Below, one piece after another: positions 1 to 63,312 of a stretch of DNA of 64,000 nucleotides. The translations under genes were made by a program, and so were the position numbers. This stretch comes from Sphagnum compactum. Taxonomy: Eukaryota. The notes beneath the pieces were generated by a model. The model saw only the letters and a list, made by a program, of their open reading frames with translations, was not told the origin of the DNA and did not search any database. The stretch spans positions 3,348,001 to 3,412,000 of the forward strand of contig OZ234494.1 of NCBI GenBank assembly GCA_965153455.1, written 5' to 3'. How positions within the stretch are numbered: position 1 is the first letter of the stretch; each line of letters starts with the position of its first letter.

Positions 1-779
1 GTTTTGAAAGCAAATGGGTTGGAAATGTTTATATACATTGTTGAAATAAATTGAAGGTTCAAGAAGTTTTCTCGTTTTGAAAACAAAGTGGTTGAAAAAA
101 AGTTCTTCTATACATGTATTTTTTGTGAAGAGAAGATTGTGAGTTTTGAACACATGATGATGATTTTAAAAATATTTCAAAACTTAGCATGAGATAGCAA
201 AGGAAAGCCTAAATACAAAAGACAACTTTACAAATAATTTTAATACATTTGATATTGTGTTGTTGGCTTGGGTATATTAAAATTTGTATAAGGTCACCAC
301 CCATCCTTATGTGATGTACTATTTTAAGTTGAAGTGTGCATAATTTCAAATTTCTTATGGAACATTTAATTTAATTTTTAACAATGAATAATTTTTTTTA
401 GAAAAAACAAAAATCATTCTTAAAAAATGAGTAACTTTTGCTCCATTGGTTTAAAAATTGCAAGATGACAAATTGTGCACATTGTCTCAACAAGGATTTT
501 TAAACAATAATAATACCAAAAGCACAATCAATGAACCTTCATCATTTGGGGAGGTCACATTAATGGTCACATGGAAACTAAACAATATTTTATGTAATTT
601 AAATAATAATTTAAAATTTAATTTAATTTAAATAATTATTTTTATTTTTATTTTAAATTTAAATTAAATGAATTTATTTTTAATTAATTTAATTTAAATT
701 TGGAACTGGAAATGAAGAACCGCCCAACATTCTTTCTTAGTTCTTTACTCACAAATAAATACACCACATGGCGGGTCCC

Positions 780-1250
780 CGAAAGAATCGCCGGGCGACT
801 GTCCAGCGCAACGAGCGGGTCACCCAATGACTCCCCGGGCAACTGCAGCAAGGTAACGACCGCTGTCGTCGCCCAATGAATCCTCGGGCAAATGCACCAA
901 ACTTCACGACCGGGTCGCTCGCCCCGTGAATCTCCGGCCTCGTGAGCGAGTCACCTGCAGCGTAACGACTTGTGTCGCCCAATGAATCCTCGGCCGACTA
1001 CTGCAGCAGCAACGTAACGACCGGATCGGATCGCCCAATGAACCCTCGGGTCGAAACTGCGGCAGAGAGAGTAACGACCGGATCGGGTCGCCCAATGAAT
1101 CCTCGGGTCAAAACTGCAGCAGAGTGACGACCGACCGGGTCGCCCAATGAATCTTCAGGCAAATGCAGCAGCGTCACGATCGGGTCAGCCGAAGAATCTT
1201 CAGGCGATTCCAGCCACGTAACCGCCGGGTCACCCCATGAATCCCCGGCC
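780..1250. repeat. GC-rich degenerate tandem array (about 9 units of 50-60 bp) upstream of PECT1
   Basis: Core CGACCGGGTCGCCCAATGAATCCTCGGGCAAA(C)TGCAGC recurs, with CCCAATGA at about 822, 872, 978, 1034, 1091 and 1143 and variants near 922, 1189 and 1233. Confidence 0.85.
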
Positions 1251-1605
1251 GCGCTCGCGCTGGCTGCGGCGGCTCCCACCACTGCTCCTCGTGTGCTTGC
1301 GTGTTTGCAGCGTTGCCTCTCCCCCTCCCCCCTGCCGCGTCGCTTCCTTGCTGCTGTGCTTCCTTGTTCTCTTCTGAGATCGGTAGCAGCTGCTGTTGTT
1401 GCTGTTGCAGTTGTTGCTGTTTTTCTTTTGTTGTTTTGGTCAGTTTTGTTTTTGGGTCCTTTTGGAATAGAGTTCTTGAGTGCTTATGTGCAGTACTGAA
1501 TACCAGAATTGGCGTCATGGGCATTGTTATTCACAGCTTGTAGATTGCGGGATTGTTAATATTGTACCGAGTTTCGATTGGGTTTTGTTTGATTTTTTTT
1601 CTTAG

Positions 1606-5184
<3,579 letters not shown>

Positions 5185-6025
5185 GTCATAATGTCCTTGC
5201 TCCAGATGCAGTGCAATTCTAGAGTGATTTTTTTGGCGGATCACCGGATCTGATGTAAAATTTGATAGAGGTCTGTTTTTCTGGACATGATAGTTTAGTT
5301 TGTGGAGGGGGGGAATGTGAGTGTGAGCAGCAGCAGGAAGTTCTAGTGCACACACACCCCCATGACAGCAATGAATAGAACCTGGAGTAGGAGGGTGTTT
5401 CTATAATTGCAATTTATTTTTAGGGATTCATATGTATGTCGTTCTGGGCCATAAAAATCCATTATCGAGGCTCCACTTTTCTATGCACATAATTTGCATC
5501 CCATACGTTGAGCTTGCTCAAATACGATCTAATTCTCAGTGCTGAATTGAGTGTGTCTGTCCACCAGCGTGTTTAATTCTTCCCACTGTAGCTCTTGGAC
5601 ATTTGGGCTGAGTGATTAGGGTTACTAAGTTTACAAAAGAAACAACCTTTATTTTGGTTAGTTCTGTACTTTCTCAAGCATGAAGTGGGTAATTGTGTAC
5701 GGTTTACTCTCTTTGTAACAAACCATTTTTTTTTTCTCCTTGAGCCTTTTGTATGCTGGTCCCGCACGCTTGGAAACAAGCTTTTTCTTGTGGGTCACAT
5801 CATTGTGTTGTTGTCGTGGGTTAAGTCCAACCATCTCTAATAACCGAGTATGAAGAAAGAAGAAAACTAAAAACTACCAAGTTGAAAGTTACAATCTTAT
5901 ATGTCAATCAATATTTGGTATTCTCCTTGTACCAAGAAGTGAAGGCAAAAACAAAACATCTACCATACTTCCATGGAACACAATGTATTTTTCTCTCAAC
6001 ATCAAATATCATCTCCTTCACCATT

Positions 6026-6270
6026 AGTCCTCCTCCTAATCTCCAGTAAAACAAACAAGACAAAATGAGAGAATGAAAAACCCACGCAAGAGGAGAAAAA
6101 AATGAAGTCCTCCTCCTAATCTCCAATAAAACAAACAAGACAAAAATGAGAGAATGAAAAAGCCCACACAAGAGGAGAAAAAAATGAAGTCCTCCTCCTA
6201 ATCTCCAATAAAACAAACAAGACAAAAATGAGAGAATGTAAAACCCACACAAGAGGAGAGAGAAAATGAA
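6026..6270. repeat. Minisatellite, 3 units of about 81 bp
   Basis: AGTCCTCCTCCTAATCTCCA(G/A)TAAAACAAACAAGACAAAA..GAGAGAATG..CCCAC.CAAGAGGAGA starts at 6026, 6106 and 6188. Confidence 0.9.
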
Positions 6271-7502
6271 GAAATGATGGTATCCTCTCACCCACACAAG
6301 TTCCCCCATCATTTAGAAAACAAAAAAGCATGTCATCTTTTCTTACTTACAAAGTAGGTTTTTAGGGTTCTCAATGAAACCAAACCATGGGATCTAAATT
6401 AACTATAAATAAAATTCTAAAACAACATACATGTATAATTCCTCCTCTCAAGTGTTTATACGATTATAACAAGAATACAAAAACCCAATCAAACCCTTGG
6501 TTGCATCTTCCAAGAAACAAAGGAAAGTCCAAGTCCTTGGTTGCAATAATGGAAGGGATGGTCTAGGACTTGGGTGTATCTCTCAAAATATTGTGATGAT
6601 TGCACATGTAGAGTGCATGAAATCCAAATTGTTGTAATCATGGGAGTTGGATCACACAAGCCCACTTTGCATTACCTCCATGAAGTTTTAAACCACAATT
6701 GTCATCTTTTCGGTGCCAATCACATTTAGGTAATGAATTGTTTTTATCTTGTTCAAATTTGTTTTAGCTTGAATTGAATTGTGCCCATGGCCATGCATTT
6801 CTTTTAAGTTGCAAGGATTGGTGTGAGGACTAACTCTAATATATATATATATATAATTTTTTTTTTAATTTTTTCTTTTCTTAGCTTGGTTATGTGGGTT
6901 TAAACTATTGCAAGCTACCATGTTATTGCAATTGCACTAGTAATAATGGAGACACGTTTTCTTAGTGTTCAACATGAGTAAACCGCATTGTAAAATTTTA
7001 CAAGCCAAATTTGGTGTTGCCAACCTCTACATACACAAGTACCTAAATGATCACACCATAGTTCTAAGATTATGGATGACTATTAGGAACATTGTGTTTT
7101 CATTATTTTGGAGATAAAATTTTAGTGATGATGGTTAGATCAAAAATTGGTTTAAAGGGAATGACTATAAGTTCTTATACTATTTTGTCCTACCAAAAAT
7201 ATGTTTTGTTTTGGAATTTGCTTTGAGATGTCTTTTCAAATTTGTCTCTTTTGAAAACTATATATATATATATTTTTTTCTCAACACCATAATCATGAAA
7301 ATGATGAACAAATTTTCAATGTTTTTTTTTTGGTAGCAATTTGCATCTTATTTCAATCAAATTGAATTTGAATTGGGATTTAATCATATTGGAATTTGAT
7401 TCATTCGAATCAAGAATTTGAATTCAATGCGATGTCATTCAGTATTTTCATTCAAGTGAAACTTCATTTCCCAATTTATTTATTTTTCATCAAAAAGTAT
7501 CA

Positions 7503-7745
7503 TAAGGCAAAAGAAGAATTAGGGAAACTCGAATATTTCACCATGCAAAAATATAGTCTTCCAAAAATCCTCTAAAAGAAACCCAAATCCCTTCAAAGAT
7601 ATTATAACTCTATAACAACTAATCTCAAGTTTCAACACGAGCCAAAATATCATCTTTCCAAAAATCCTCATATAAAACTAGACCCATTATTACATAAGGG
7701 CCAAAATCCCTGAAGCTACTACAACACTCTACAACGAATCTGAGC
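7503..7745. repeat. Dispersed AT-rich repeat, copy 1 (non-autonomous element-like)
   Basis: Colinear similarity with 23697-23945 (TAAGGCAAAAGAAGAATT...CTCTAAAAGAAAC...AACTAATCTCAAGTTTCAACAC..AGCCAAAATAT). Confidence 0.8.
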
Positions 7746-7780
7746 ACAATATCCTTGCCTTGGTAGGCGAGGCCAATACG

Positions 7781-7830
7781 GGTTTTGGGTTTTAGGGTTT
7801 TTTAGGGTTTAGGGTTTATGCTAAAGGTTT
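7781..7830. repeat. Short degenerate interstitial telomere-type (TTTAGGG) tract
   Basis: GGGTTTTGGGTTTTAGGGTTTTTTAGGGTTTAGGGTTT. Confidence 0.8.
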
Positions 7831-7837
7831 ATGGAAG

Positions 7838-9062
7838 ACAGAAGGGTATAAGCTATCAGACAACAATTCCAAAGCTTTTAAAGGTGGTGTCACTACGGCT
7901 TCAATTCATGCACAAAGGACAACGTTTTCTTACAAGGAAGTAGTAGGCACTTGCTCAACCTGGCACTTGTACATCCATCGGGCCCAAGTTGGAACACCTG
8001 ACTGCAACCGCTTCACATGAGAAATCAGAAGAATTGATGTCTGAGAATGTGTTGCCAAAGGAGCAAACCTCAACTCCTCTCATGTCTGACTTGGAGAAGG
8101 GCAGGCAAGGTTTTGCACCTGAAGACGCTGAAGTTGCTGTTTCCAAAGAAGTCACTGAAGAGGCTACAATGACTCCTATCAGCACAGATCTGACAAAAGC
8201 ACAGCCTTTGCTGGACAACAGATCACTCTTTGGCCCTTCTTACCAGTTCTGAGGCAACGGCAGCAGCTCTGATAGTGGAGGCTTCAGACACAAATGTGAT
8301 GGCCACTTCAAATGATGACTCAGACACTTGCAGCTTGCATGAGTCAGATGAGGAGACTCTTGTGGCAGCTGAAATGAGAGAAAGTGCAGATGCGAAAGAT
8401 GAAGCAAAAGACTCTATGGCAGACAACAACAAACATACTGCTGCCAGTGATGATTGCAAGTCATCAGACTATAACACAATGCTTTCAGCAGAAGGTCCTT
8501 TCTTTCATCTTGATAATGCACCTGGATCAGTTTCCACCACTGTTGCAGTGACCCCTTTCAAGGATGGAAAGGGTCCTCCACTCAATGGGCTTCCAGTGAG
8601 TCTACCTCTATTGTCTGACAATGTTACAAACACAGTTGCAGTGACACCAATGCACAGATCCCTGCCACCTTTGGCTCCTCTCCCCCTGGTGAGATTCATG
8701 AGCCCACAAACATATTATGCCTCTGCACCAACCAGGCATGCCCATTGTGCCCATCTTTGTACCTCCTTACCATTTTAGATTGCCAATGCTTGATGGGTTA
8801 CAGACATCATCACTGCTGGAAATGGTCCACACATGGCTCCTGTACCTTTTGCACCATTTTGCAGTGTGCCCATAAACCTGAATGCAGAGGAATTTCATCC
8901 TGGTACATGTGGCAGCAATCTCAGAGTCCGCTGACATTCCCACCCATCCCTGCTTATTCTCCAATCCCAGAAATAGTAGCAGATACTGATGAAAACGTTT
9001 CACAGCAACAACATGCAGGTGCAGCAGCAGCAGCAGATACTGAGAAACAACTAGAGCAATGA
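7838..9062 (+). pseudogene. Frameshifted fragment of the C-terminal region of a TSS/REC (CLU-family TPR) gene
   Basis: TFSYKEV-ALAQPGT (restored by removing a 4-bp GTAG duplication at 7943-7946) resembles the SYKEVALAPPGT motif. Also LSAEGPFF, VAVTPFKD and a PAM2-like INLNAEEFHPG at about 8872-8904. Further frameshifts near 8228 and 8730-8810. No CLU/TPR part is present. Confidence 0.65.
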
Positions 9063-10122
9063 GAGTGCAAAAACAAGCAGCAATAAATAGTGCTCGTCTG
9101 AGGATCAGTCTTCCAATTTGAATAAAGGTCATTCAAAAAAAGGATTGCGTCAGAGAACATATTGCTTGGACCTAACTTCTTGATGAATGTGCAATCAAAG
9201 TACCTGGAGAAGATTTGTACATCTCTGTGCAAACTTGAGACCAGCACAACGATTCAGGGCACAAATTTGCATTTTACTTGCATGGCAGCATTTTAAAAGT
9301 GCTTGAAGAAGACCATGGCAGATGGAATGTTGGCCATCCATGTACCCTCTCCACAATTTCCCCCTACTTTGGGGGACTGTGATTTCTTGCCCACTCATTC
9401 TGCACATTCACCTAAACCCTAGGCATGTCTTGGGAGCAAGATTGGAACCTGTGAAACTTGTTGCCACGCGTCACAGAAGAACGTCGATGATGCTCACATG
9501 AATGTCCCCAGTTCTGCTTATCACTTTCCTGCTTATGCAACTCCATATGTGGCTAATAAGCTTCATAAGCAAAACCCCACATACAAGAGCTCATACATGA
9601 AGAAGACATCGACCTAAACCCTAAACCCTAAACCAAGACCGCACAGAATACCCTCATGAGAGCTTCCAGTTCCCTCATGAAAATAACTTTCAAAACTATG
9701 AGTGTGAGGCAAAACCTAAGAGAAGGAAAGATCACACGAGGATTCGCTTTCCAAGCTCCGGAGAAGAACCTGGATGGACTTCCGGAGAGCTTAGATAGAC
9801 CTGGTCTTCTGAAGCTACCAGATTGCCGCCACTGACCTCAAGCTGCACCTGGTTGTTGATGTGTGGAGAGAGAGAGAGAAGCTAGCTGTGGAGAGCGAGG
9901 CAAGGTCCCTAGAAACCCTAAACCCTAAACTCAGACACACACACACACACACACACACAAACTGCATGGAAGCCTTCCGGCGACGATGATTGTGCACGGA
10001 AGCAGAGGAAGGATGCGCGCGAGGGATAGACGCTCGATCACAAGAGTTTATCCGGGGACACACAACGTCTGTCTGACGAGGGTCTTTTTTATTGGGAGGT
10101 TTTTCAGCTGGAATTAGGAGCA

Positions 10123-13100
10123 ATGGCGATGGAGGACAGGAAATTCTCTGGAGCAATGACGATGGAAGACAGGAATTATCGTTTGCGTTTAGCGTTGCCT
10201 GAGCTCTCGCAGCCCTTCCTCGGGCACTGGCTTTCTCCTCTCCACCAGGACTCGTACCTTAACAACAAGCTTGACAATGCGGGATTTGACATGGACCGGC
10301 AATTTTCTAGCAGCTGGTTTTCTTCAGACCCTGGAGATACTCCATCCTATGCGTCTCCTGTTGAGAGTGAAGAGAGGAGATGTCGTGAAGATGTCAAGAG
10401 CGATTGCAAGGTCCAAGTTCCTGAGATTAGGGTTTCTGTTTCAGAAGCTGAAGGCAGGAAGAGGAATGGCTATGTGTTTCACAGGTAAAAATACTTCTGG
10501 ATGTGCACACTCTGTTGTTCTGAATTTCCAATTTCCAAGGTCTCGGTGTCTGGATAGGATTCAAGGTCTGTAAATGCATGCTTCATTGCAAAAAAAGTCT
10601 GATAATTGAATGTATGCCTCAGATATACAGATGAGTTTCTGGAGTTACAAGGTGATGGGAATGATTGTGTTCCAACAGAGGCGGAAGCTCAGCATGAGAA
10701 GATGGAGCAGAAGAAACAGGTTGTGGAAATGTGGCTACATGTGGGAAAAATGCCTGCAGGACAGCCAAAGCTGCGGCCGTGGGAGCTTTCACATGAGCTG
10801 GAACAGATGCTCCAGCAGATGGTGTTGCCTCAGGCTCTTGATGAGGTGCAGCTTGGAAAGCATGAATTGCTGAGTGGAGGGGCTCTTTTGGATGATGCAG
10901 CAGGCAACAAGGAGTTGAGAATTCCATTACAGCCAAGCTCCAGAGCCATCCTGGTAAGTCTTTATTCTAGTGAACTTCTAACAGTCAAGAAGAGCACATG
11001 ACTATCCTGAAATTTTGCTGGTGTTCTGCCTTGAAATCTGACTTCTTTTTTCTGGATCAATGGTGCTCACAGAGTTCTTAGGTTTGGCTCATTGTAGGAA
11101 AGAGACCTTGTCAGAGATGCTATTTATGCTCTCCAAGGCATCCCAACAGCTGTTGCCCATCTAGAGCACCTGGCTACAACATTCTCTGAAACCTCAGCAG
11201 ATCGAACCTCTCATAGCCTTCAAACTTTATGGTTGCGTTCGTCAAGCACAACAGCACTTGGGAAAGTGCTTGCAGAGTTTGCACAGGCTGGGCACCTTGC
11301 CTGCCAGCTTGAGGCTTTTGTCAGTTTTTTCTTGGATGAGGATCAACGGGACAGTGCCTTTCTGTTTCAAAAGGACAGCTTGGAAAAAAAATCATCCAGA
11401 ACCATGAGGAGAAAGAGAAAACGGCAGAATTTCAGGTCCAATGTGGAGCTCCAGCCTAAGTATGAAACCATCCAAGGGAATCAACCTGTGGATGGAGGTG
11501 GGACCTCACCTCACTGTCTTGTGAATCAAGCTTTTGCAGGAGCAGTAAGAACCATCATGCAGGGGAAGCTAGCATCCTTGAACACATTGGGAGCATCAGT
11601 TGTGGATCGTAGGCAAAACACAGTTTCTGGATGGGCAGGTGGAGAGTTTGTGCAGGTTTCGGAAGACACGGATCCAGGTCTTGTATTTGGATTTGGGTTG
11701 GGCGATATAACACTCCTGGAGTTATACCTGCATACAAGCAGACTAAGAGAACAATTCCAAGCCCTTGCTGCAGTTTGTATGATTGATGGTGGTATTTACT
11801 CTACTGGCAAGTATGATAATAGAGCTGATCCAGAACATGCGACAGAGAGAAGACATGGAGATGAGGGAGCATTGCCACCAGCTGCTGGCAATCAATGTAT
11901 TACTGTGGATTGCGCACCTAAGCCCTTTCCACGAGGAGCAGATTTGTTGACATATTTGTACGAAAAGCTTTCGGTATGCATGAATTCCCAACCAGAGCTG
12001 CACCCATCTCCCATAAAACAACAGACAATGTAAACTTCTGCATCTAACATGACAGTAATGACAAATTGGGAACATGTATGCAGGAGTCTGATCCTATTTC
12101 TTTGGAGCTATTACGGTTTCTGTTTGAGCGGGCATGCAGACCATATGCAGGATTCATCCAACTGTGGCTGTATCATGCCACAGTAGAAGATCCTTTTGAA
12201 GAGTTCATAGTGAAGTGTGCAGAAGGCAATGGCATGCTGCTTTCACCTCCTTCCACTGCTTCTGGACTAGTCAGTAAACAGACTTGTATGTCAACTTTCC
12301 AGGTATGTATGGAGGGAATGTGATGGAATAGTATTAACACCGTAGCAGTCTTTTTCCTTCAATCAAGAGAAGACATGGAATCAGAGTCTTGTAGTGGATT
12401 GCAGGTTCGCACTGGTGTATCAGTGCCTAGTTTCCTGGAAGCTGTGTGCACACCTCTTCTGCGAGCTGGTCAGCAACTTCAGGTGCTTTCAAAACTGCTA
12501 GAGACTCACCAGTTTGCTCCGCATGTGGCCAACTTTCCCCTTTTGCCCACGGGTGGGTCCCAACATCCGTCTTCATGTTCCTCTACCATTGGTTCCGAGT
12601 TTCTCAACGATGAAAGCTCTGTTTTGACTCCAATTCTCCACTTTAGCAAGCTGAAGCTGCAGCATGTTGTACAGCAGCGAGAGATCCGAAGGCAAGTCAT
12701 GATGGAGCGGTATGACCGTCTTTTTGCTGATCTTGCCCAATCATGCCTGCCTGGGGAACAGGGTGAGAAAGACAGATTGTGGCAAATTGTGCAATTTCCG
12801 ACTGTGCCAAAGAACAAGCTTTCTCAGAAAATCAGTGACAAAACAGAACAAAGCATTGACATGCTTTTGGACAGACCACTGAAATCTAAACAGAAAATGG
12901 ATGCCAGGATTCTGTAAGTGAGCTCTATCAACTGATACTGTAAGGCAGTGTTGAGAAACAGTTGATGCAAAAAGAGTTGTTCAATGAGCATGCTTGCTGT
13001 GCACTGCATGAACTAATGCGCAGTCACAGACAGGGATGGAGTTGGAACAATTGTATTAGAAAGGAAGGACTGCTCATTTTTTACTACTGTCTTGGAAAAC

Positions 13101-16100
13101 TTGGACATGGGTGTAGGTAAAGCATCCTCAAGAGAGCATGCATGGTGCCTTAGCTTGTCTGATTGTAGCTTTCTGAAGGAAAACTTATTGTCTCGTTCAG
13201 AGCTTCAGCTGCATTGAGGGTGGAGAAGCGAGCAGATGAAGATGTGCAGGCAGGCATCACTCAGGAAAATTCAGATATCATTTGTGTGAGTGTGGAAACG
13301 CCAAGAACATCATCAGCATCCCAGCATACAGAAAATAAAAAAACCTTGGTCCTGAGCATTGGTTTTCATGACAAGCTGTCCCATTGTTCTTATCCTGATG
13401 CCAGAGCATCATTGATATCTGATTTCCGAAGGGGCACAAGCTGGCCCCTATGTGGACTTCCATCCAATCCCTTTCTTCCCTCCAACAAAACTCATACTTC
13501 CACTCATGCTTACACTCATACTGTGTTCCATGACAAAGACCGGCATTGGGACATTGCCATGCATTGGGGAGATCCAATGCGCTTTTTTCCTTCTGAAAGC
13601 TCTCTGTTTGATGGAATGGAGGGGTTTGTAGAAGACAAGAGTGGTCCCATTTCATGCCATGGGGTTGCGACTGTCAGACCTGATTGGTTCACAAGATTAG
13701 AAGAGTCATTTCACTACCAGCTTTTTCGAGGCCTGGATGCACAGATTTTGCAAGAGCAATTTGGAAATCTGGGGTTTGAAAGTGACAGGGAGGATGTTGG
13801 GGATCACAATCCCTATTGCACTATGAGCAAAGACTGGGCAAATTATAGGTCCCCTGGAAGCTTAACTCCATTGCTTGAGAGAAATTCATGGAGACATTTA
13901 CAACCAAACCCAGGTAGGTCAATTCAATGACTATTGTTAGGACATGAAATGATTCCTCACTCTTGAAGTTCAGTTGATTGATTATTGATCAAGGCTACTG
14001 TTGCACAGACCCATGAATGCAACTTGGTTTTCAACCTCCTTACACTGTCCATGCACTCTTGGACTCATTTACCAATCTGCATCTGAACTGTCTGTAGAGT
14101 GGGAAGAAGTTGTGGAGAGTGCAGCTGTGGATGCTTATGAAAATTGCTATTTTGTCGAGGAGTGTGTTTCACCAAAAGGAGAGAATATCAAATTGATGAA
14201 CCCCCATGATGAGACAGATTCACTTGGAGGGTTGGGTGTTATTAATACTAGTGGGAAAAGTGTGGATCCATCCCTATTTGGTTTGCTCCAGAGTGGCAGA
14301 GACAGCTGTGGAAAGTCATGTGAGACAATTGCAGAATCTTTGGATACACTTTCTGCTCCCAAAGAGATAATGCCTTCTGAAGACAGTAAGTTGCTTGATT
14401 CAATGGATAATCATCATAAAACAACAAAATCAAGTGCGGAAACAGATACCATTGCATCAAGTGAAAGCATGGGAGCTGCCTCTGCTGGCTCAGGGGGCTC
14501 AGGAAGAGGTGCTAGCTGGCAGACTTACCTTGGTGCTGGCTCTAGAGAGCATGTAAGGCAGCTGCCTGAAATGCAATATGAAGCAGCCGCAGCATGTGAA
14601 GATGGAGATGACAGTGATGAAGAGATTCCATTGGTGGTTGTGGTTGACCAATGTCTAGTACAAGAAATATTGTCACAGTATCCTCTTTCAGCAACCCATC
14701 TTCTTGGTAGTGCCCAGTTTCCTTACTGTTGTGGGATACTGACCTGGACAGGGCCATGCTAAAATGGGATGATCCTCATAGGTTTGCAGCAGCTTTGAAT
14801 GAGAACACTATCGACATTTTTTATTAGCTAATGCTGGCTGGCATCATGACTGGGTCTTCCTATCACTTTCAGGAATCCGACAGAAACTCAGGTTGCAGGT
14901 GCCTGTATAATTGTCTGCCCCATGTTTGAGCAGATTAGTACATACTTTTCTGCACCCACTGTCAGGAGCTGACAAAACCAGTGGGGAGTAATGGCAGCTA
15001 ATCACAGCAATTCATGATGAAGGTGATGGTTTGATATGTTATGAGTAACACTCACAAGGTTATTGCATTCATTGTTGTCCTGTCTGTTTTGGTTTGGCCA
15101 CAACCCTCACAGCATCTGTTCAGTTTCAATGTTCCTTTGTTTCCTAATTTCTTAACCTACACCAGATATCAACTTGTGAGTATGTTTACAGTTCGGCTGT
15201 TCCAAGAAGGATTGTGTCTCCAAAACCACTATGCTGCTCTGAGGCGTTACTATTTCATGGAAAGAGGGGACTGGGCTGAGTATTTCTTGACTGCCCTTTG
15301 CCAGCATGTGAGTTCTGAATAGTCCTTTCCAGATCTCTCTTTGGGAAGCAGAAAATTTCATTTTAGTTGCCCATTATCTGGCCAGATCTCTAGCTAATGT
15401 CAAGAAACTGAGGCATCTGGAAGCTGGGTTCTCTTCCCCTGGAATTTCAATGTATTTTAAGATTCATGCCACAAAGGAATGAGGGACATTTTATCAGTGT
15501 TAGGCTAAATTATGTACTTGGTTTGCCAGGAATGGGGCCATACAGGAGGTCAGCCTCGTCTTTTGGAGGTGCAGGCCATGCTCGAGACTGCGTTGCAGTC
15601 TTCTTCATGTGAGGGGGATGAGTATGCAGAGAGACTTTATGTGGTTATCCATGATGCATTTGAAGCTAATCCATCATCCTTGCATAAGTCACATCCCCAG
15701 TTCAGCCACAGATCACGAGTTCCTGGCCCATTTGTTAGTCGCAATTGTGAGTGTGACTGTCCACCATTTTCCATTATGCATCGTGTTGCTATATATGTTT
15801 TCAACAAAGTCCTGCTGGAGCTTGACAGGGATCCTGTTTGTTGCTTATTATCTTGATTAGAATTGTGCAATTGGGCCCCATCTCCTTCCTGCCAGCTCCA
15901 CCCCTTAATCTTTGACATGTATCAGATTCAATGCTTGCAAGATGTGTATATACACCAACATGGAATTGACAGGTCTGAGGGCTTTCAGCTAAATCTCTTT
16001 TTGTTCCAAACTGAGAAATGTGAACGGTGTCATGATTATGTGTATGTCAGGTCTTGGTGCATTCGACTGTTTCAAATTGGGTTACAAGGTGGACTGGCCA

Positions 16101-34993: not shown

Positions 34994-35810
34994 TGACGCG
35001 CTCCCAAGTTCCTTGTTAGACTCAAGTTGGGTCCAAAGAAGTCAAACAGCGGAATTGTTTGAAACTTGGGGCACGCTCCCAGCTTCCAGCACTAAAAGGG
35101 GTAGAGGGGCGTGCTAAAGCTCCGGGATTAAACTAAGGCGAGGGACAAGCTTTACTTAGTTACTCGGACCTGCATCAAACCAACCAACAAGTTGGTTAAT
35201 TCACATTCGAAAGCACTTTCAGTGCTAGGACAAGCCACGGGCGACCCTAGACTCACATGACTCACCACGGCCCGGACTCGGGGGAAGACACCACCTTCCC
35301 CCATATATACTCTCCGTTACTTTGCGACACCTACATCCGAATGGCACTTTTTCCCGGGACTCCCAAGGAGGAGTCCTGAAACAGTCCCGGCTTGGACTCC
35401 CGAGACTTTGGGAGTTCATAACTTCTTGCTCAGACCTCCGATTGTGATAAGGTCTAAAGCAAACTTGTAGCCCTCCTTGAGAGCTTTCCAACGGTGTGTC
35501 ACACTTCACCTGCACACACCGGGGTCAGGTTGATTCCCGACTTTTAGTGGTCGGGAGTCAAACTGGCAATTTGACTCCCAGCCCTTCTTTCCTCCATAAC
35601 TTGTGCTGCAGATGTCCGAATGGCTCATGCGAGGCCATTTTCGACATTACACTTCAAGACCTTTCCAACGGTATAAAGAACACCTCAAGGCAAGGTGTTT
35701 TGACCTTTGCAATCAAACTCTGAGTTTTCGGGAGTCCCGGAAGACTCCCAAGTCCCCATTTTGGGAGTGTGAGTGTCATCCTCACACTCCTTCAAAGTGG
35801 GCTTGCAACA
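34994..35810. mobile_element. Solo LTR (817 bp) with 5-bp target-site duplication
   Basis: Termini TG(ACG)...(CAA)CA, flanked on both sides by CTTTT (34989-34993 and 35811-35815). GC-rich island in AT-rich DNA with no internal coding region. Confidence 0.85.
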
Positions 35811-37699
35811 CTTTTAATCTATCGGAATTGGTCCACATTAATTTGTAACCATCCAATACCTTTGTGTTGTGTGGCATATTGGTGTAAAATGTGCCCACAA
35901 AAAACAAATGTCAAATTTTGGGGTGAAAGCACATTACATTGACCCCTTTTGGGCCCCTTTGGGGTGTCACATTGTAGTACTTTCCAAAGACATGCATGTT
36001 TGAGTGTATCTCACCTCAAGCTTTTGAAAGATTTTCATAAATTTTTTGCATATTATGTTAGAAATATAACCTAGGCAAGATATTAGAAATGAAACTATTT
36101 CACTTCATTGGGAGATTGGAGTATATTTGGGAAAATGACTATAGCGTACTTGTGTATTCAAAAATACAAATATATTCCAAAAACAATTTAAATGATTTTA
36201 AATCTTCATGAGAGTTGAAGGTATATTAAGCCATGTCATTTCACATATTTTGAACCAAGTTTGGATACCATGTGACTAATTTGAAATTTTTCATCTCAAA
36301 AAAAGAATTTAAAAAAAAATGCAAAAAATGTGTGATAATTTGATGTTTTGACAAATTAACACATTCACATGGAAGATGACAAACATAGCTAGATGGGCCA
36401 TTTTAAAATTTTCATTAAAATTGATTATTTTAATGACTAATGAAACCTTAAAATTAATATAGTCAAAATGAGACAGTGGCCCTATTTTACCAAATAAAAA
36501 TATACCCATGGATCTTTTAATAAAGATAGTGAAAATTATTATTATTTTAAAAGTAATATTACATAACATTGGTTTTGTATAAATAATATTTGTAGGGCCC
36601 AAAAACCAAAATTGATGCCCAAAATTAAATGTACCATACTTTTGGAACAATTGTAATCTATGTACTATAATACTAGACCCAAAAGTGCCAATGTGCTTTC
36701 ACCTTGTGTTATTTATTTTCAAACAAATGTATATAATAAAAGGCCCATTGAAAAAATGGCATCAATAATATGGGGTGCACTTGTCCATTAACACATAAAC
36801 CATACATAGTTACATTAGAAAATAAATTTAATATTAGTTAGAGTTAATTGGAAAAATGACTTTCAATCTAGATGACATAAGTAATCCATCCCTTCAAACT
36901 TCAAAGATTGGCTTTCATAAGTGTTTATAGCACTAAACTTACCTAGCCCACAATTTTTTTGAACATAAATTAGTAACCCAATTCTTTAGATCTAAAATGA
37001 AGGATCTAGATGTGTCAATTATCTAGCCACACCACATACAAAGAGGTACCTAAGACCTTAAACTTTTTATTTTCTTTCCAATTTGAGTTTCAATTTTTTT
37101 TAAAATGCATAATTATTTCAAACATTTTTTATTTATGTTTTAACAAATAATTTTTTTATATTTAAAATTTTCATTTATAAATGTAAGGAAATAAATGCAA
37201 CCAATGAATGTGTGTGTTTGAAAAATGTCACTATATATTATTTATAAGATTTTTTGTGTTTGCATCAAATTTTCTTATGGAAATTTGATTCGATGTTCTT
37301 TCCTTTCAATGCACTATGGACATAAAGTCAAATCCCAAGGGGGACACTAGTTTTAAAAAGTAGAAAATATGTGAGTAAAAATAGAGGGTGCAATACATTG
37401 GTTGTTGGGTAAAAATTAAAAGTTAATTAGTTAAAAAAAGGTACATTTATTCAAATAATCAATTTAATTATAATATAGGATATGTAATAATATGAAATAT
37501 TGGATAATAATTAATATAGGGTGGTTTGAGCATACATATATATATTAAATAATGAAATAATAATAGGGTGATAAAAAATGGGTTGAACAATTATCTAATA
37601 CCTTTTTAAAAATGGTCGTTTGACACACGTAGATCCCAAACTTTATAGTAAGTGTCCCCCCCCCCCTCCCTCCCCCCCAGAGTCAAATTTGATTCCTTG

Positions 37700-54367: not shown

Positions 54368-56186
54368 CTGGCCTGGGGCCAGACTCTCAAATCCTAAAGG
54401 GTCTATTTTCAGACCCTTCTCCTCTACCTATTTGAAAGGCCAATTAGGTAGGGTGTTCTTTGCAAGGGCTGTTAGCCCAGTCCCAAAATGGTGCCAAACT
54501 CTTTTGGGAAGAGAAACTGCAAGCATGCAGTCACTAGGAAGGCCCAAGCATGCACTCAAGGTGCCTTGCTTTTTTCCATTTTAAGTTTTGGTGGAAGGGA
54601 AGGATTTTTTTTTCATTTTTCCTTGGTTCTCAATGTGTTATCACTATGTGCCTTTGAGTTCCCATATGTTCCCCAACATGTTTTCCATACCACCTCACTT
54701 TTATCGTATATATGCTTTGGCAAATCTTCTCCTCCTTCCACTCTATAGGAAGGGCTACTAGTTGAGGCCAAAAATAGTGGCAGCCAATTTTAGAAATAAA
54801 AATTTCATGCAACCAATGAGAAGGCTCAACGTATGCAATAGAAACTTTTGTTTGGTGAGTCCTCTATGTTTCAATTTTATTTTGTGATGGGTTAATCAAA
54901 TTGGCTCATTATAGGAAAATAAAATAAAAATCAATTGAATCACACAACTTGAACCCTGGGAGGAAACATCGTTCTTCTCTTTATAGTAATTATATTTGTT
55001 AATTTATAGCAAAAATTACATTTGAATGGATAAAAATTCTTAGGATTGTCAAGTGAGGATTTTGAAAACTCTTGAAATTATCAAGTTATGAATTCTATTA
55101 CTTTGTGAGCTCAAAACTCATGATATGAGGTCTATTTGAAAACCTTCAAAAAGGCAAAGTTGTATCTTTCAAAAATAAATTTGTAACTTAGTTTTGCACT
55201 CTCTAATTGAAATAGGGCATTTGATCATTTTTCACGTTTGTGTGGTCAAGCTAAGTGAGATTTCTCCTAAACCTTCTTTTGACAATAACTTGCATTTCAA
55301 AACTAAAATTGCAAGATGTAAGCCCACTTTTGACATTTACTCTCCAAAATCTTCCTAATGGTCTAAAGAAAGACCATTGGACAATTTTTTTGTTTCAAAT
55401 GTTGTTTCAAAAATGTGAAGCATTCTAAGATTTCAATTTTCAAAGTGAAAACCTCCCTTGCACTTTCCCACTCTTGTGAGAATGTGCATAGTCTTTGGAC
55501 ATTGTCCCAACCCATTTCTTTTCTAATTTAACCTTGGCTATGGTCGTGACATTGTGGTTATTGTTCATGTGATTTCCAAACACATCACATAGATCTCTAA
55601 TGGAAATCATGTTATCAAAACAACCAAATCTATATGCAATAACAATAAATTGTAAGTGTATTGGTATTTATTCCATTATAGGGTTGTTATGAACTTGTAA
55701 TGAGCTTATATTCATTTTATAATTGCTTCAAAACATGGAATAAACATCTTGATTTTATTCTTGCAACATTCATCTAACAACTAGGCAATGATGGTTTAAA
55801 TGTTTTTTGAACTTTTGATGTATCCTTGAAATATCTTTGTGCACCAATGCCCATATACAACACATGAAGATTATTTAGCCCATCATAACTTGCATCATTG
55901 TTGTAAGGATTATCTTGTGGCAAATTGAGACTTCAAACTTCTTATCCTTCAACACCATCACTCCTATCAATATTATGTCAAGAGTTTAGTTTAGCTACCT
56001 AAATAAATCACAATTAAGTTAATCCTAAACTAAATTAATGCAACTTAATGTGCTTTAATTCAAAATCAATTTAAGTGTGAACTAAGTTTGGGATATTTCA
56101 TAGATTGGGTATAAATCCTAAGAGTTGTGATTTCTTTGCAAATTTTGTTTGTGTACATTGTTTTGTGAATTTTACTATGTGTTTTT

Positions 56187-58820
56187 TGGCGCCCCAAACT
56201 TAGATGTAGGTTGATTAACCGTCGTTGGTGTCAGCTGCGAAGCCAGCGTTCAGCCGACGCACTCGCAGGCAATCAGCTGCTCCCCAACGCCTCGCTGGAA
56301 CGCGACGAAAAGGCGCTGATTGATCTGGTAGATGGTCTATCCTCGGGGTCGGTTGTGTTTGTCAGCGTGACGGATGGTGATCTTGCGGATCATGATGCGC
56401 GTTTCGGGGGCGGAGTCACCGAACGTCTCCCAAGCCATGACGATCAAGCGCAGACCATTGCGACGATACTTGTCGTCGTCGTCGGAGTGCTTCTTAGCAG
56501 CGGCGGCCTTGGCAGCGACCAAACTCTTTCCCGCCACACGATTGATGAAGGTGGGCTGCAGTGGGTGTGTAATCACAGAGTCCAGGCAGGCGTCCTGGCC
56601 GGCGCAGAACATCGTGAGCAGGACGTCAGCGGGACGATCCTTGCGGCTGGCGATTAGGCCGGTCTTCTCGAGGCGGGACTTGAGACCCGCTTCATTGGCG
56701 ATGATGTTCTGCACGTACATCATGCGGTCGTTGCGGCGAATGGTGTGCGGCCCGTGCCTGCAGGTCACGGCGTGGTCGCCGTATGGGTCTATCACGTGCA
56801 GACGGCACTTCGGGCAGCGGATGGTTGGGCATGTCTTCAAGCCCAGCCGAAACTGGACGACACGCTCGAAGTGGCACGGTGGTAGGGTGAGGCCGAGATA
56901 GGGCAGCGGCAGGGCGGTGAGGTACCCCGACGCCCAGCCAGCGTGCAAAGACTGGAGGCGCCCCTTGTTGCGCATGTTGCTGTCGGCGAACAGGCGATCG
57001 TACTCGGCCTCGTTCATCAGGTGCATGATCTTGGATTGGATGCCAGCGCCTGACGCCTCAGGGTTGAACTGGAGGATCTTGTTCAGGGCGGCGAGGTTGC
57101 TCGGGTTGACGCGTTGATGCAGGCGCTCAATCTCGGCGCTCAGGTCGTCGGTCGGGTCGGCGTCGTTGCGGCCGAGCAGTTTGTTGACCAGGCTGGCGGT
57201 GCCCAGGCGCGAGCTGACGTAGGCGGCATCGGGGTGGTCCTCGACAATGCCAATGGCCAACCTGGCCTTGCCGATCGGCAGGTGGGCCTGCTTCCATGCA
57301 AGCGGGTCGTCTATTTGGGCGGAGAGTATGGCCTTGATTGCCATCTGCCAGTTTTGGTCGACGGTCTGCAGCTCCTTGCGGATATAGTCGCGACGCATGG
57401 TGCGGAGCAGGTGGTTCATCTTGGACGAATTGTCGCTGCCACGCAGGATGATCATTTCACTCTGCGGGTCGTTGATATACGGGATGCGGTCGAGGATCGA
57501 CTGGATGTTGTCGATCTTGGCTTTGATGAAGTCCTGCACGTACAGGTCGGGGCCGATCGGGCAGCCGAGCGTCTTCTGGCCGTTGTCGAATGTCTTGAAC
57601 TTAATCGACGCCGGGAACAAGCATCGCAGGTCGATCGCGTCGGTGTCGCTGGTGATCGACGACTTGTGAAGCTGCAGTGGAGGCTGTGCTCAGGTTCGTC
57701 GTCGACGAACATCTGGACGGCACGACTTGTGTCATTGAGCGTGCCGACGATCTTGCCATCATCGAGGTACCACGCGTTCAGCTGCAGGTCGGGGATGATG
57801 TTGTGCACCTTGAAGAGGAAGGCGTGTAGGGTCAGCGAAAACAAGAGGCCGGCCAGCGGGTCGCCCTGGTCGACGCTGGATGTTCGCGAGAACACGTGAT
57901 CCTCGTAATACAGGCGGCCCGCCTGTGTGTAGACGGCGACGACAAACCGCGCCATGCCCGACAGCTTGTTGACGACCGAATCAATGGCGGTTTGGCGTAA
58001 GCAGCGCCCGGAGGCGTTCTGCAGGTCCAGGTCGACCTTGGCATGCGTCTCACGGTCGATGGTGTCACGGAACATGTTGGTGGCGTGCACGATCGCTTCG
58101 GCCCCGCCGACGACACCGGCGCCGAGCTGGAATGGGTTTAGCAACTCGGCAATTGCAACGCACTCCTTGTCCAGTAGGCACTTGCCAACGATGCGTCGGT
58201 CCAGCAACATTAGGTTCAGCTGGTGGATGTCGTACTCGATCGGGTTGGCGCGTAGCGCCTCTTGGGACGCTTCCTTGATGAGTAGGATGGTCCGCCCGCC
58301 GTTAAAGTACGGGCCGATGGCCTCCGGCCAGGCGCCTTGCGCCAGCACGTTGACGAAGCGGCTGTACGCCCGCTGAAAAACGTCCGCCACGTTGGTCGAG
58401 GGAGCGGCGGCGCAATACTTATAGAACTCGGCGCGGTTGCCGTCCATGCCCGCCGCGGTGCTCTTCGGGATGCTGTTGACGATGTGCATGATTTGGCCCT
58501 TCTTGAAGTTGTGGCTGGTCGGCAGGTCGACCAGCGGTTGCATCTCGGGCAGGTCGGCTTGCTGCAATTTGGACAGCAGCTTGCCGAGCGTGTGCTCGCT
58601 CAACTCCGCCATGTCGCACGACATTAGGGCACGCGTGACGCAGCCCGCTTTGCCACAATGCACCAGCTTCTTTGCGCGGTTGGCATTTTGAATGATCAGT
58701 TCGTCGCCCTCGAGGCGATACAACGAGGCGAAGACGCGGGTCAAACGGACTTCGACCATCGCCAACGCCCATTTGGCGGCTTGACCGCCAGGCTGAAACC
58801 ATTGGACGCAGCGGTCGACG
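56187..58820 (-). mobile_element. 5'-truncated non-LTR retrotransposon, CRE-like (RT + CCHC + restriction-like endonuclease), inactivated
   Basis: RT motifs PFQLGAGVVGGAEAIVH, DLQNA, QGDPLAGLLF, AWYLDDG. Zinc finger CPKC..DPYGDHAVTC, RLE RPADV..LD..AKKH..AWETFG, terminal QRLFVAFQRG. 1-bp frameshift near 57665 and premature TAG at 56337-56339. Direct repeat ATGTGTTTTT at 56177-56186 and 58821-58830. Confidence 0.88.
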
Positions 58821-59644
58821 ATGTGTTTTTGGGCTTGGATTCTTATTTGTTATAATTGAATTAATTTTTTGAATCACCAAATGTCATTTGGTTTTGTTTT
58901 GTGCAAAAATTATTTTTCTTTTTGTTGAGCTTTGTTTGATGCATTGTGTGATGAGCCTACTGTTTTGAATTATTATTATGTTGTTGGATTTGGAATTGTA
59001 ACAACATGCACTTTGGAGTTGATACATGTGTTATTTAAAGTGATTTGTGTTATTTGGCTTATGTATGTGTGGATAGAGACAATTGTAAGCATTCATATGA
59101 CAGCACACAATAACTATCTCTCAAAGTATGAGCAAATAATTCTATAGCCAATTCTTGAAGACAAATTGATAGGACTATAAAAACACACTTGTGGAACAAG
59201 TATAATCACATTGAAGTTGATCATGGATGTTCACATGTTTAAAGGAATGAAGTTTACCTTTAATGTGTGCTTTTAACAAAAATGGATAAGGTGTGCACCA
59301 ATGTTGTTTATGATATATCCTTGGATAAGGATGTATAATCTTTTCAAATTCCCATTAAGTAAAGGTATGTTAACATTCAGCAATTTTCCATCATGTTCAA
59401 ATCTTGGTATACAAAATTGAGTTTTCAAATAGATGGGTAGGGTCAAGGTACTCCTGTATATGAGAAAGCATATGCTTGCCCAACAATAGTAGACAATGGC
59501 AGAGAGGCCCAGATGCTGAGTGAAAGAAACAAGAAACCATGCGAGGTGCTAATGAATGCCCATATGATGATATCTCGACTTATGATGGAGGATGCTTTTG
59601 CACTTTTCTGCTATTATGAACTACAGACACCAATGCTCGTGGAT

Positions 59645-60035
59645 GTCTCGTCCGTCATGTTTTATCCACTCTTGTTTTTCGTTCTTTCCCGTCATATTTC
59701 ATCCACGTTCTTTTTGGGGGTGTCTTGCCCATTATATTTCATCCATGAAATTTGGTTCATTCATCTGTCCCCCGCTCATTTGCACCCATTCATGTCTCGT
59801 CCGTCATATTTCATCCCCTCTTTTTTTTTTGGCTCTTGCCCGTCTTATGTCATCCGCTTTTTCTGGGGTCCTCTTGTCTGTCATATTTCATCCACGGAAA
59901 TTAGTTCATTCATCTGTCCGCCGCTCATTGCACGCATTCATGTCTCGTCCGTCATATTTCATCCGCTTTTTTTTGGGGGGGGGGTCTCTTGTCCGTCATA
60001 TTTCATCCACGAAAGTTTGTTCATTCATCTGTTCG
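59645..60035. repeat. Higher-order degenerate array (CCGTCATATTTCATCC core, about 150-bp super-unit) upstream of annexin
   Basis: Core at about 59652, 59689, 59730, 59801, 59839, 59878, 59949 and 59993. TTCATTCATCTGT recurs about every 150 bp. Confidence 0.8.
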
Positions 60036-60920
60036 CCGCTCCTGGCCGCTCCTGGCACGCATTTGCGTGTACGCGTTTGTGTGCGTGTCGCGAGTTGCGC
60101 TTTCAGCGATGGCGGGCGTTGTCGGCGTATCCGTGTGATTTCTTCAGGTTCTCTACCCTCGAAGAAGTTGTTAATCTGCGCGTTTTCTTGTTGTTTTTCC
60201 CTTGAAGATTTTGTAAAACTCTCTGCTTAAGCGTGTATTTTGATTTCCGCTCCTTATATCAGCAGAAAATTCTTCTCAAACTCTTTGTACGCTCTGTTTT
60301 GCATCGCCACTTTTGAATGATCTTGTCCTTCTTCTTCTTCCGAAAAGCTCCCTAGTCTACCAGTTCGAGCAATTCTCTCTCCTACTGTGTTTTTCCTCTC
60401 CAGTTTCTCTTGAAGTTTTGTCGCATAGCGTGATTCTGTTGCGATTGTTTCCTTTTCAAAAAAATTCGCACATCTCATCTCCCTCTGTCTCCTCCCTGGT
60501 GTTTTATTCAAAACTTGTTTTGGAATTTGACGGAGGTTCGACTCTTTAGGTCACTGACCGGCTTACGAAGCTTTAACAAAAAGGTGAGAGTCGCTTCATC
60601 TAGATCTCTTCTCCATTTCTGTTGGAAGTTTTTGTAACATATCTGAACTGTGGCTTTTAGTTTCTTTTGTTTTTCGGCAAAGTTCTTTTCCGCGTTTGGC
60701 TCCCGTTTGAAGTTATAACAGCGTTGTTTTTTTTGTTTTGTTTCTTAGTTCGCACGGTCATAAAGAATGGAATTTGCATATCCATTACATATCCGTGCGT
60801 GGAAGAGTCTGGCGGAATGCTGTGGCTCCTCAAGTCATGTTCATTTGCACCGTGGATCCAACTTGTGTGCAGGGTTTTGGGAAACGATTTTGAAAGAATC
60901 AATTAGAGTGAGAGAGAGAG

Positions 60921-63312
60921 ATGTCCACAATAACTGTGCCTCAGTATCTCAATTTGCAAGAAGACTGTTCTGCGCTCCGTCAAGCATTCAGAGGTATGCA
61001 TTACTCACAATTTTGTGTAGTGTTTAGTCATAAGTCTCCTCTCCCGCTTCAAAAGGAGGAGGATCAGAATAATTTTGCCGGAAGATTTTTAGATAAAAAA
61101 GAGTTTCAGGTCTTCCTGCTGAGATAAGCTGTTACTGTGGAGTAAGCAATCTAGAGGCTTCCATTACTTCTGACTCTGTGCAAATGAGAGGAAGAAGTGC
61201 ACATTTTATGTCTTTTACACGGGTGTCAGATTTTCCATGTGGAATGGAAGTAAATAGCACCAAAAACACGCTCACAGCTTTTAGCATTCTAACCCCATGT
61301 TTTGTTTCGGAGGGACTGCAGGGATAGGTTGTGATGAGAAAAAAGTGATTTCAATATTAGGTCACCGCACACAAGCCCAGCGCTTAGCAATAGCTGATGC
61401 TTACCAAAGGCAGTTTGGTGAGAACTTATCTAAGCGTCTCAAGTCGGAACTCCATAGCAACCTTGAGGTGTGTTTCTTCGCCCGGTGCAGAATGAGCTGA
61501 TATCACCAATTGAAGGGAACCCCAGTTTTTCAGAATAACAATCCTTTTGGGCATGCTGATCTATTCCTTGATTTGTGGCATTTCTGAGACTCAACAAGAG
61601 TGGTTTGATTGTCCAATGAAAGATACTTAAGCAATCACTAGTTTACTTTCTTGAGTGGTCAGAGAAAAGGTCACTTTTTTGGCCACCATAGAAAGCTGCA
61701 AGCAATGGTGATCAAGTGTTTTTTTCACCTTCTGTTCTACCCCTTCTCTGTTCATGTCAATCGACATGCTGATAGAGGCCACAGATAGGATAGTTGCATA
61801 GAATGGTTCATTTATTACCATGAATGCACTGATCAGCTAAATCTGGAACATGTGGACAATGCAGAGAGCAGTGCTTCTTTGGATGATGAATGCAGCAGAC
61901 AGAGATGCAGTTCTTTTATATGATTCAATGTCAGGGCTGGGCACCAAAGACACTGCCTTGATTGGAATCGTGTGCACTCGCACTCCCTCGCAGTTATACA
62001 TTATCAAACAAGCTTATTATAACCTTTACCATAGGACACTAGAGCATGCCATTGATGCGGACACTAGTGGCAACTATCGAAAGGTGAGGTCATGTTACTC
62101 AAGTTATCATGCCACTTTTGTTTTGAATTTTGTAGTGAACCTTGGACTTGTCTATCACTTGGAAGTAGGCAGGAAAGTTGAACTACAGCTTCTGGTTTGT
62201 CATTTGAGGAGGGATCTTTCAATTTTTTTCCTGTCATGCCAGTGGCTGGCAGGTGTAATAATTTTTGTGTGAACTATTCTAGCTAATCTGAGAGAGAATG
62301 ATAGTCGCAGTTGTATCTCTAACTACCAGAAATTATGTTTACAGCTCCTATTGGAAATTGTCAAAGGCAACCGTTCAGAAAGCTTGGGGGTAGACCGACA
62401 ACTAGCACTAGCTGACGCCCATGCACTATACAAGGCGGGTGAGGGCCGATGGGGCACAAATGAAGACACTTTCATTCATATTTTGGCAACTCGTAGTGCT
62501 GCCCACCTGACCACTGTGTCACAATACTACCTGCAAACATTTGGGCACTCACTTGAGAAGGTGAGTTTCACAAGTTCTCCTAGTGTAAGTTCACAACAGC
62601 ATGAGGATTCTAGCCACTTTTGCTGTTCCAAAACTAAAAAGCATTTTGTCTTGAATATGTGCAGGCAATCAAGAAAGAAACATCGGGACATTTCGAGGAT
62701 GCATTACTGGCTGTTGTGCAATCCACTTGCTACCCTGCAAAATTTTTTGCCCAGGTACTGGCTTCTTCTACTCAAAAGGTGGATGATGTTAGCACATCAG
62801 TTTGACACATGTCAAGAGAGAAGGAGATATATCCAGGATTATGGTTTGAGTCATTCTAGAAAAACCCAAGGGTGAATGAGTTCATAAGCTGACATGACAT
62901 CTAGTATAAGCACAATTCCTTGTCGCCAGTTACTTCATCTATTTCTGATAATTAGAGGGTGTAAAGAAAGTTTGGGGTGTTCCACATACCTTTGCTGGTT
63001 TTCAAGGTCTTCCTTGCAGTCTCATAATTCGTGTGTTCTCACCTAGGCAATTTCTGAAGCATCAGCTATTCAGTGGCTTTTGATCATTAACTCTTGCATT
63101 TGGTGTTGCAGGAGCTCTACCGATCAATGAAGGGTCTAGGAACAGACAACAGCTCATTAATCCGGGTTGTAACTACTCGAGCAGAAATTGACATGCAGTA
63201 TATAAAGGCTGAATTTGCAAATATGTACAACAAGACCCTGGAGCATATGGTTGCTGGTGATACATCTGGGAATTACAGGCAATTCCTTCTTACCCTTGTG
63301 GGTGGTGCTTAG
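60921..63312 (+). CDS. Annexin (6 exons)
   Basis: MSTITVP..DCSALRQAFRGIGCDEKKVISILGHR, GLGTKDTALI, GRWGTNEDTFI, KGLGTDNSSLIRVVTTRAEID, DTSGNY. Exons 60921-60993, 61322-61467, 61865-62083, 62345-62560, 62665-62754, 63112-63312. Confidence 0.95.

Follow-up and report, generated by a model that had tools for sequence, protein, structure and literature searches.

R2 elements carry an N-terminal ZF/Myb region, CRE elements insert into spliced-leader genes, Cnl1 and MoTeR insert into telomeric repeats, and HERO elements are known mainly from animals. All of these are long interspersed nuclear elements (LINEs) that possess a restriction-like endonuclease (RLE). According to the part of Kojima and Jurka consulted here (PMC4640811), the RLE elements comprise five clades, of which CRE, R2, R4, and NeSL are mostly target-specific, whereas HERO contains many non-specific elements. 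Dualen/RandI, in the portion of a further article used here (PMC5029228), are LINEs with both apurinic/apyrimidinic (AP)-type and restriction-like endonucleases, which occur in green algae and cryptophytes. The LINEs of land plants belong to L1 and RTE, as given in the consulted section of a 2022 review (PMC9033089). In the 64,000-nucleotide stretch of Sphagnum compactum DNA analysed here (the window; assembly GCA_965153455.1, contig OZ234494.1, positions 3,348,001 to 3,412,000 of the forward strand), the segment 56188..58819 on the minus strand is, with high confidence, a dead, 5'-truncated copy of a non-LTR retrotransposon, an RLE-type, R2-like LINE, belonging to a repeated, host-resident family with dispersed insertion.

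Two long open frames on the minus strand span this 2632-bp segment (57452..58849 and 56337..57689). Contigs of public read runs were aligned to 55200-59800; the runs X1 and X2 come from separate studies, X1 being possibly the assembly's own material and X2 a different genotype, and X8 represents a second species. From the 5' end of the element to its 3' end, the copy and its borders contain the following features, where RT denotes reverse transcriptase, ORF open reading frame, and UTR untranslated region:

58821..58830, no strand: target-site duplication ATGTGTTTTT, copy at the element 5' end
58820..58820, minus strand: single base, a mismatch or an added nucleotide, with no fit to the duplication or to the longer copies; loose contig ends at 58819
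57679..58819, minus strand: N-terminal RT region and RT fingers/palm with motifs A, B, and C; ORF open to the 5' end
58013-58033, minus strand: RT motif A, DLDLQNA, in the translated frame
57848-57868, minus strand: RT motif B, QGDPLAG, in the translated frame
57755-57769, minus strand: RT motif C, YLDDG, in the translated frame
57677..57678, minus strand: frameshift, one base absent relative to other copies; loose contig ends at 57677 in X1, X2, and X8
56817..57676, minus strand: RT palm (its end), thumb, and helical linker, from the AlphaFold2 model and the R2 structure alignment
56760..56816, minus strand: CCHC zinc knuckle CPKC..H...C (CX2CX10HX3C), upstream of the nuclease, from the motif and the relatives
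56418..56750, minus strand: restriction-like (PD-D-K) endonuclease domain, from motifs, profile, and fold match to R2
56616-56636, minus strand: nuclease motif RPADVLL
56574-56588, minus strand: nuclease motif CLDSV
56484-56501, minus strand: nuclease motif AAKKHS
56337..56339, minus strand: premature stop TAG, private to this copy; another letter at 56339 in read contigs
56250..56336, minus strand: last 28 codons of the ORF and the true stop (56250-56252), severed by the premature stop; from the C-terminal consensus of the relatives
56188..56249, minus strand: 3' UTR of 62 nt, ending ...GGGGCGCC
56182..56187, minus strand: oligo(A) end A6 (T6 on the plus strand)
56177..56186, no strand: target-site duplication ATGTGTTTTT, copy at the element 3' end

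A preliminary description of the sequence had named an RT, a CCHC finger, and a PD-(D/E)xK-type endonuclease, and motifs, profiles, and the fold model find all three. In the zinc knuckle, H306 and C310 are almost invariant across an alignment of 50 sequences. The endonuclease domain (56418..56750) contains AWETFG as a further motif, and its putative catalytic residues, as read from the translated sequence, are intact. Between the RT and the CCHC knuckle of the copy, neither Pfam nor the alignment revealed an RNase H.

The assignment to the R2-like LINEs comes from profiles and from the predicted fold. A profile built from 10 relatives and the C-terminal ORF of the copy matches R2 proteins with E-values of 1.3e-27, 2.3e-27, and 1.1e-22, whereas the match of the same 10-relative profile to L1 ORF2p, at about 1e-10, is weaker. 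A C-terminal profile matches residues 1210-1376 of R2Tg, which contain the CCHC knuckle and the RLE, at E 1.3e-14. The AlphaFold2 model of the C-terminal 450 residues, based on an alignment of 50 rows, reaches a predicted local distance difference test score (pLDDT) of 91.8 and a predicted template modelling score (pTM) of 0.87. With this model, Foldseek gives seven matches at E <= 0.001, all of them R2, with query-normalised template modelling scores (TMq) of 0.51-0.58 over 420-482 columns; the eighth match lies at E 0.49. Since the profiles and the fold model match only R2 among solved structures, where R2 proteins are the only RLE LINEs, the element is an RLE-type (R2-like) LINE. Single-sequence searches of the PDB gave no match for the C-terminal ORF and only weak L1 matches (E 0.019) for the RT ORF.

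A protein search among 1.84 billion representatives gave 2830 matches, the best 150 of which were examined. Eighteen of these 150 are fragments of 79-180 residues with 64-86% identity to the element, the other 132 reach at most 37%, and no relative among the 150 lies between 37% and 64%. A search with the RT behaves likewise, 11 of its 17 matches being fragments with 64-88% identity and the remaining six lying at 28-36%. In one of the fragment clusters, the member names are Sphagnum jensenii, S. balticum, and S. troendelagicum. Beyond the fragments, the relatives are distant (22-37%); they are long proteins that share the layout of the element and originate from metagenomes, the transcriptome of a marine protist, and a freshwater sponge, Ephydatia muelleri. 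In these long relatives, Pfam detects RVT_1 in 5 of 5 of one set and 22 of 23 of the other, together with a PHD finger in two, a ubiquitin hydrolase in one, and a C2H2 finger in one. An AP-type endonuclease was detected by Pfam in none of the 28 long relatives (0/5 and 0/23), the copy itself being without its N-terminus. No description of an RLE LINE with a PHD finger was found in the full-text literature. The nearest clusters in the ESM Atlas are labelled as sponge or as unnamed 'hypothetical protein' and serve as leads only. A scan of metagenomes with peptide patterns returned 57 pattern matches, none of which was confirmed as a relative. The sole locus obtained in the metagenome scan with a 20-base 3'-end pattern (L001) has no BLAST match to the element and is a chance hit.

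In composition, the element differs sharply from the DNA around it. The island contains 60.8% GC with an observed/expected ratio (o/e) of CpG of 1.17, against 39.1% GC and a CpG o/e of 0.35 for the window outside the element, which confirms the GC- and CpG-rich island of 2.6 kb in AT-rich flanks noted in the preliminary description. Windows of 300 bp hold 54-64% GC within the island and 28-32% GC in the adjoining DNA. The comparison of codon usage with host genes, which had likewise been proposed, gives a GC content at third codon positions (GC3) of 82-83% for the element against 34-56% across eight host reading frames of the window. The contrast between element and host is thus genuine and located in the synonymous third codon positions, and the high GC3 is a trait of the element family, not the mark of a contaminant. 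Open frames of up to 281 aa also lie antisense to the element ORF, for example at 57054-57899 on the plus strand; such frames are expected by chance at 82% GC3, and they give no sign of a gene.

Two interruptions separate the copy from an intact element. At base 57677 the two reading frames join; the read contigs of other copies contain one extra letter there in three runs, and six related protein fragments read uninterrupted across the site. At position 56339, all aligned contigs of X1 and X2 and nearly all of X8 have another letter than the window, and fragment P0052 has Q at the position of the premature stop, followed by the same ...CEC.G C-terminus. The tail beyond the premature stop (..INQRLFVAFQRGVGEQL..) agrees with the conserved C-terminal consensus of the relatives and also with the fragments P0030 and P0052. 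The earlier count of one frameshift (57677) and one premature stop (TAG, 56337-56339) is correct, as is the 3' UTR of ~65 nt, measured here as 62 nt. Its fold is no more stable than those of shuffled sequences (z -0.24).

At the other end, the reading frame remains open, the longer copies in contigs of X1 and X2 continue past 58819 as GC-rich sequence, and fragment P0196 extends 73 aa further upstream than the copy; therefore, the copy is 5'-truncated. Judged by alignment to full-length relatives, about 300 residues or more of coding sequence are absent from it.

The direct repeat ATGTGTTTTT, perfect over 10 bp and located right at both composition jumps (56177-56186 and 58821-58830), has a T-run that overlaps the A-tail, as described before. 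When two 20-bp boxes were placed at random 20000 times, with this spacing kept and within the host portion of the window, they shared an exact repeat of at least 10 bp three times; the motif itself occurs four times in the window against 0.69 expected. The A6 run may be partly derived from the target and the exact 3' junction ambiguous, and other copies in the read contigs begin to match the window at 56182, or not until 56189. The real duplication could be somewhat shorter than 10 bp, with the left T-run overlapping the A-run.

The element belongs to a multi-copy family, present in the reads of two species, that shows the gradient of 5' truncation usual for LINEs. The summed contig depth, which is not a copy number, is 47-627 over the element against 7.8 in the flanks in X1 and 183-6818 against 43-48 in X2; in X8 it is 89-15598 over the element, with a flank depth that is not comparable. 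Along the element, the depth climbs steadily in the 3' direction and jumps in the last ~250 nt. Over 56188-56431, this jump amounts to ~15000 in X8 against ~2500 further in, and to 4162-6818 against 2426 in X2. At 56296-56299, some contigs depart from the element and continue as AT-rich sequence; a single X8 contig omits 56279-56577. The jump suggests either very short truncated copies or a non-autonomous element, similar to a short interspersed nuclear element (SINE), that borrows the 3' end.

Relative to the other copies, the element in the window has at least 32 private, well-supported differences in 2632 bp. Twenty-eight of the 32 best-supported differences listed are A/T in the window and G/C in the other copies. 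The cytosines concerned lie 14 times in CG, eight times in CHG, and six times in CHH (H being A, C, or T), against a background of 35/22/43%, a pattern that fits methylation-driven decay after insertion. Because its private changes number at least 32 in 2632 bp and its CpG o/e is still 1.17, the copy is fairly young, yet it is clearly dead. Together with the duplication, the number of private changes and the undepleted CpG support the fairly recent insertion through target-primed reverse transcription (TPRT) that the preliminary description had advanced. As for RNA, one run gave four reads at 90-95% likeness, three of them lying only partly on the stretch, and no inference is drawn from them.

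The two junctions bear directly on the authenticity of the island, and a check for reads across both of them, as had been suggested, was positive. In X1, a 1075-nt contig over 55200-56245 crosses the left junction with 0 differences at a depth of ~8, equal to the flank depth, and a 333-nt contig over 58563-58895 crosses the right junction, again with 0 differences at a depth of ~8. In X2, a contig over 55200-56245 crosses the left junction, differing from the window in the left flank by three letters and two gaps. The junctions are thus crossed at single-copy depth by contigs from two studies, both of them in X1 and the left in X2, the perfect 10-bp duplication lies precisely at the composition jump, and the element family is repeated in the same read runs; these observations contradict the view that the island is foreign DNA joined by mis-assembly or contamination, a view that draws on the abrupt change in composition (CpG o/e 1.17 vs 0.35) and is extremely improbable. 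The flank pieces of X8 are scattered, and no contig among those listed runs across the site as an empty site. In X1, a loose end at 58827 (two contigs), which by eye resembles the left flank, was considered as a candidate for a paralogous empty site and is too weak to use. Within the 64-kb window, neither further copies of the element nor a paralogous empty site were found. The preliminary description had called the island foreign-looking; this stands for its composition and fails for a contaminant or a recent transfer, as the family is repeated and fragments of 64-88% identity bear Sphagnum names. Recent horizontal transfer has no support because the family is repeated in two species and diversified at 64-88%, three Sphagnum species are named, and nothing among the best 150 matches lies at 37-64%. 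An old transfer into the moss lineage from a GC-rich donor, of which the composition would be the signature, is unlikely. The explanation appeals to the gap between a GC3 of 82-83% and the 34-56% of the host frames, though a composition unlike that of the host is common among LINE families. The explanation also draws on the restriction of land-plant LINEs to L1 and RTE in the consulted section of the 2022 review (PMC9033089), and on the nearest non-moss relatives, which, within the best 150 of 2830 matches, reach at most 37% identity and originate in a sponge, the transcriptome of a marine protist, and metagenomes. However, these same 150 matches contain no candidate donor, with nothing at 37-64% identity, and the family is diversified (64-88%) and shared by the reads of two species and three named Sphagnum species. 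Any transfer would therefore be old, and the retained composition then points to a property of the active lineage.

The second departure from the R2-like, dispersed family would be a CRE-clade family aimed at a specific (TG)T-rich sequence, in the manner of CRE, SLACS, CZAR, Cnl1, and MoTeR; this reading, with the clade label that the preliminary description had given, is quite unlikely. The order RT, CCHC, RLE is common to the element and CRE, yet equally to all other RLE clades, as far as the consulted part of PMC4640811 goes, and that source assigns the many non-specific RLE elements to HERO. The nick site follows a T-run and the duplication is TG/T-rich, as an aimed insertion would have it, whereas the flanks of the copy are at single-copy depth and the 64-kb window contains neither an Rfam family nor a tRNA gene. 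The flank consensuses of other copies, a few of which are listed, are AT-rich like the host intergenic DNA and agree at only 0.56-0.68. Moreover, the nearest named relatives are from sponge, not from trypanosomatids, fungi, or algae. The target specificity and (TG)T preference raised as a possibility in the preliminary description are consequently unsupported by the single-copy flanks, the lack of an RNA gene, and the poor agreement of the other flanks, and the pattern is not that of a spliced-leader, rDNA, snRNA, or telomere specialist. Dispersed insertion, not aimed at one repeated gene, is very likely, as a part of the explanation as a whole.

Under the R2-like LINE explanation, the insertion may have proceeded as follows. 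The element nuclease would nick the plus strand after the T-run of ...ATGTGTTTTT^GGG, and the 3' end released in this way would anneal to the short A-run in the RNA of the element and prime reverse transcription. The synthesis or joining of the complementary DNA would halt early, so that over about 1 kb at the 5' side would be left out. A second nick on the other strand, 10 bp away, would give rise to the 10-bp duplication. After insertion, the copy would have lost one base, gained the premature stop, and accumulated about 30 or more additional changes, mostly of the C-to-T type and enriched at CG and CHG.

Several points weigh against the explanation in this form. The mechanism is taken from the anatomy of the copy and from the known R2/LINE pathway, and the order of the nicks and the priming at the A-run are read from these. 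Scans of both ORFs with Pfam and NCBIfam return no family at E 0.1, RVT_1 included; with these databases silent on the copy, the RT is identified from its motifs, its relatives, and profiles. The copy lacks its N-terminal part, so the full domain layout of the family is not visible in it. Dispersed insertion is drawn from one fully read site, a few flank consensuses, and the lack of RNA genes. The right contig of X2 begins at 58809, just 12 letters inside the element, and is not counted as bridging, and the depths over the element are sums over contigs.

The remainder of the window consists of host DNA with a few features of its own. To the right of the insertion, 59640-60040 contains tandem-like internal repeats (blastn self-matches of 75-83% identity) inside a 254-aa ORF with recurring ..SYFIHE.. 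motifs, and at 59715-59746 a 4-base insertion and a cluster of variants differ between read runs. Pieces of a host gene for a gamma-tubulin complex component (GCP_N_terminal) lie at 8194-14762, with 98% identity to a JGI protein. The frame 11098-12033 of this gene shares 48% identity with a protein from Ceratodon purpureus, a moss, and 34-40% with fern, conifer, and Amborella proteins, with a Mercurialis match of 44% over only 28% of the query; this places the host among the land plants, nearest to mosses. An annexin exon of the host is located at 62273-62875. At 1000-2080, a segment with 53% GC and a CpG o/e of 0.83 contains an ORF with a cytidylyltransferase-like domain after an (ER)n/G run encoded by a GA repeat; it has the appearance of a host gene's CpG-rich 5' end. 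At 35200-35950, a patch of 48% GC (CpG o/e 0.52) stands amid 25-28% GC; several short ORFs overlap one another on its two strands without forming an evident gene, and it probably represents a further fragment of a repeat.

Taken by itself, the window yields an ordinary result, a single dead repeat copy. A repeated and recently mobile RLE-type family in a moss would, in turn, widen the known host range of R2-like LINEs. It would supply a non-specific plant RLE element for comparison with the site-specific R2 systems used for gene insertion, and would form a natural test of the fate of a CpG- and GC3-rich element in a host whose CpG sites are methylated and eroded. The full-text literature yielded no account of RLE LINEs from mosses, Sphagnum, or Viridiplantae; Repbase Reports and Dfam lie outside that scope and may catalogue the family. 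It is a tentative proposal that a resident and still recently active lineage of R2-like RLE LINEs exists in peat mosses and possibly in further bryophytes. The lineage would be the first of this type described in land plants, deeply separated, at no more than 37% identity, from all other sequenced relatives, without a fixed target, and with an extreme GC3 of ~82% maintained in an AT-rich, CpG-depleted genome; it would either survive from the earliest LINE radiation in this plant lineage alone or stem from an ancient transfer between kingdoms.

The R2 proteins of Bombyx mori (R2Bm), Taeniopygia guttata (R2Tg), and Platysternon megacephalum have the same order of RT, thumb/linker, CCHC, and PD-D-K nuclease as the element, and share the footprints of TPRT; their identity to the element in the fold alignment is only 11-12%. 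R2 proper inserts into the 28S rDNA, whereas the copy, with no rRNA match by Rfam in the window and with AT-rich single-copy flanks, does not. The element further differs from R2 in its short A-run end and in its 62-nt 3' UTR without a notable fold, and its relatives in an N-terminus with a PHD finger or nothing recognisable in place of ZF/Myb. The L1 and RTE LINEs of land plants inhabit the same host kingdom, and L1 likewise displays 5' truncation, a target-site duplication, and a 3' A-run; however, L1 and RTE carry an N-terminal AP-type endonuclease, and the element family carries a C-terminal RLE. In Dualen/RandI, the C-terminal CCHC and RLE and the occurrence in the green lineage are common with the element, which differs in that RNase H is absent between RT and CCHC in the copy and an AP endonuclease is present in 0 of 28 relatives, the N-terminus of the moss family itself being unseen. 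In CRE1/2, SLACS, and CZAR of the CRE clade, RT is followed by CCHC and RLE in a single long ORF, as in the element; CRE elements are mostly target-specific in the part of PMC4640811 consulted, whereas the copy lies in single-copy DNA without an RNA gene. The HERO clade, compared by behaviour only, has non-specific members, similar to the insertion of the copy into unique DNA, and the nearest named relatives of the element are likewise animal (sponge) proteins.

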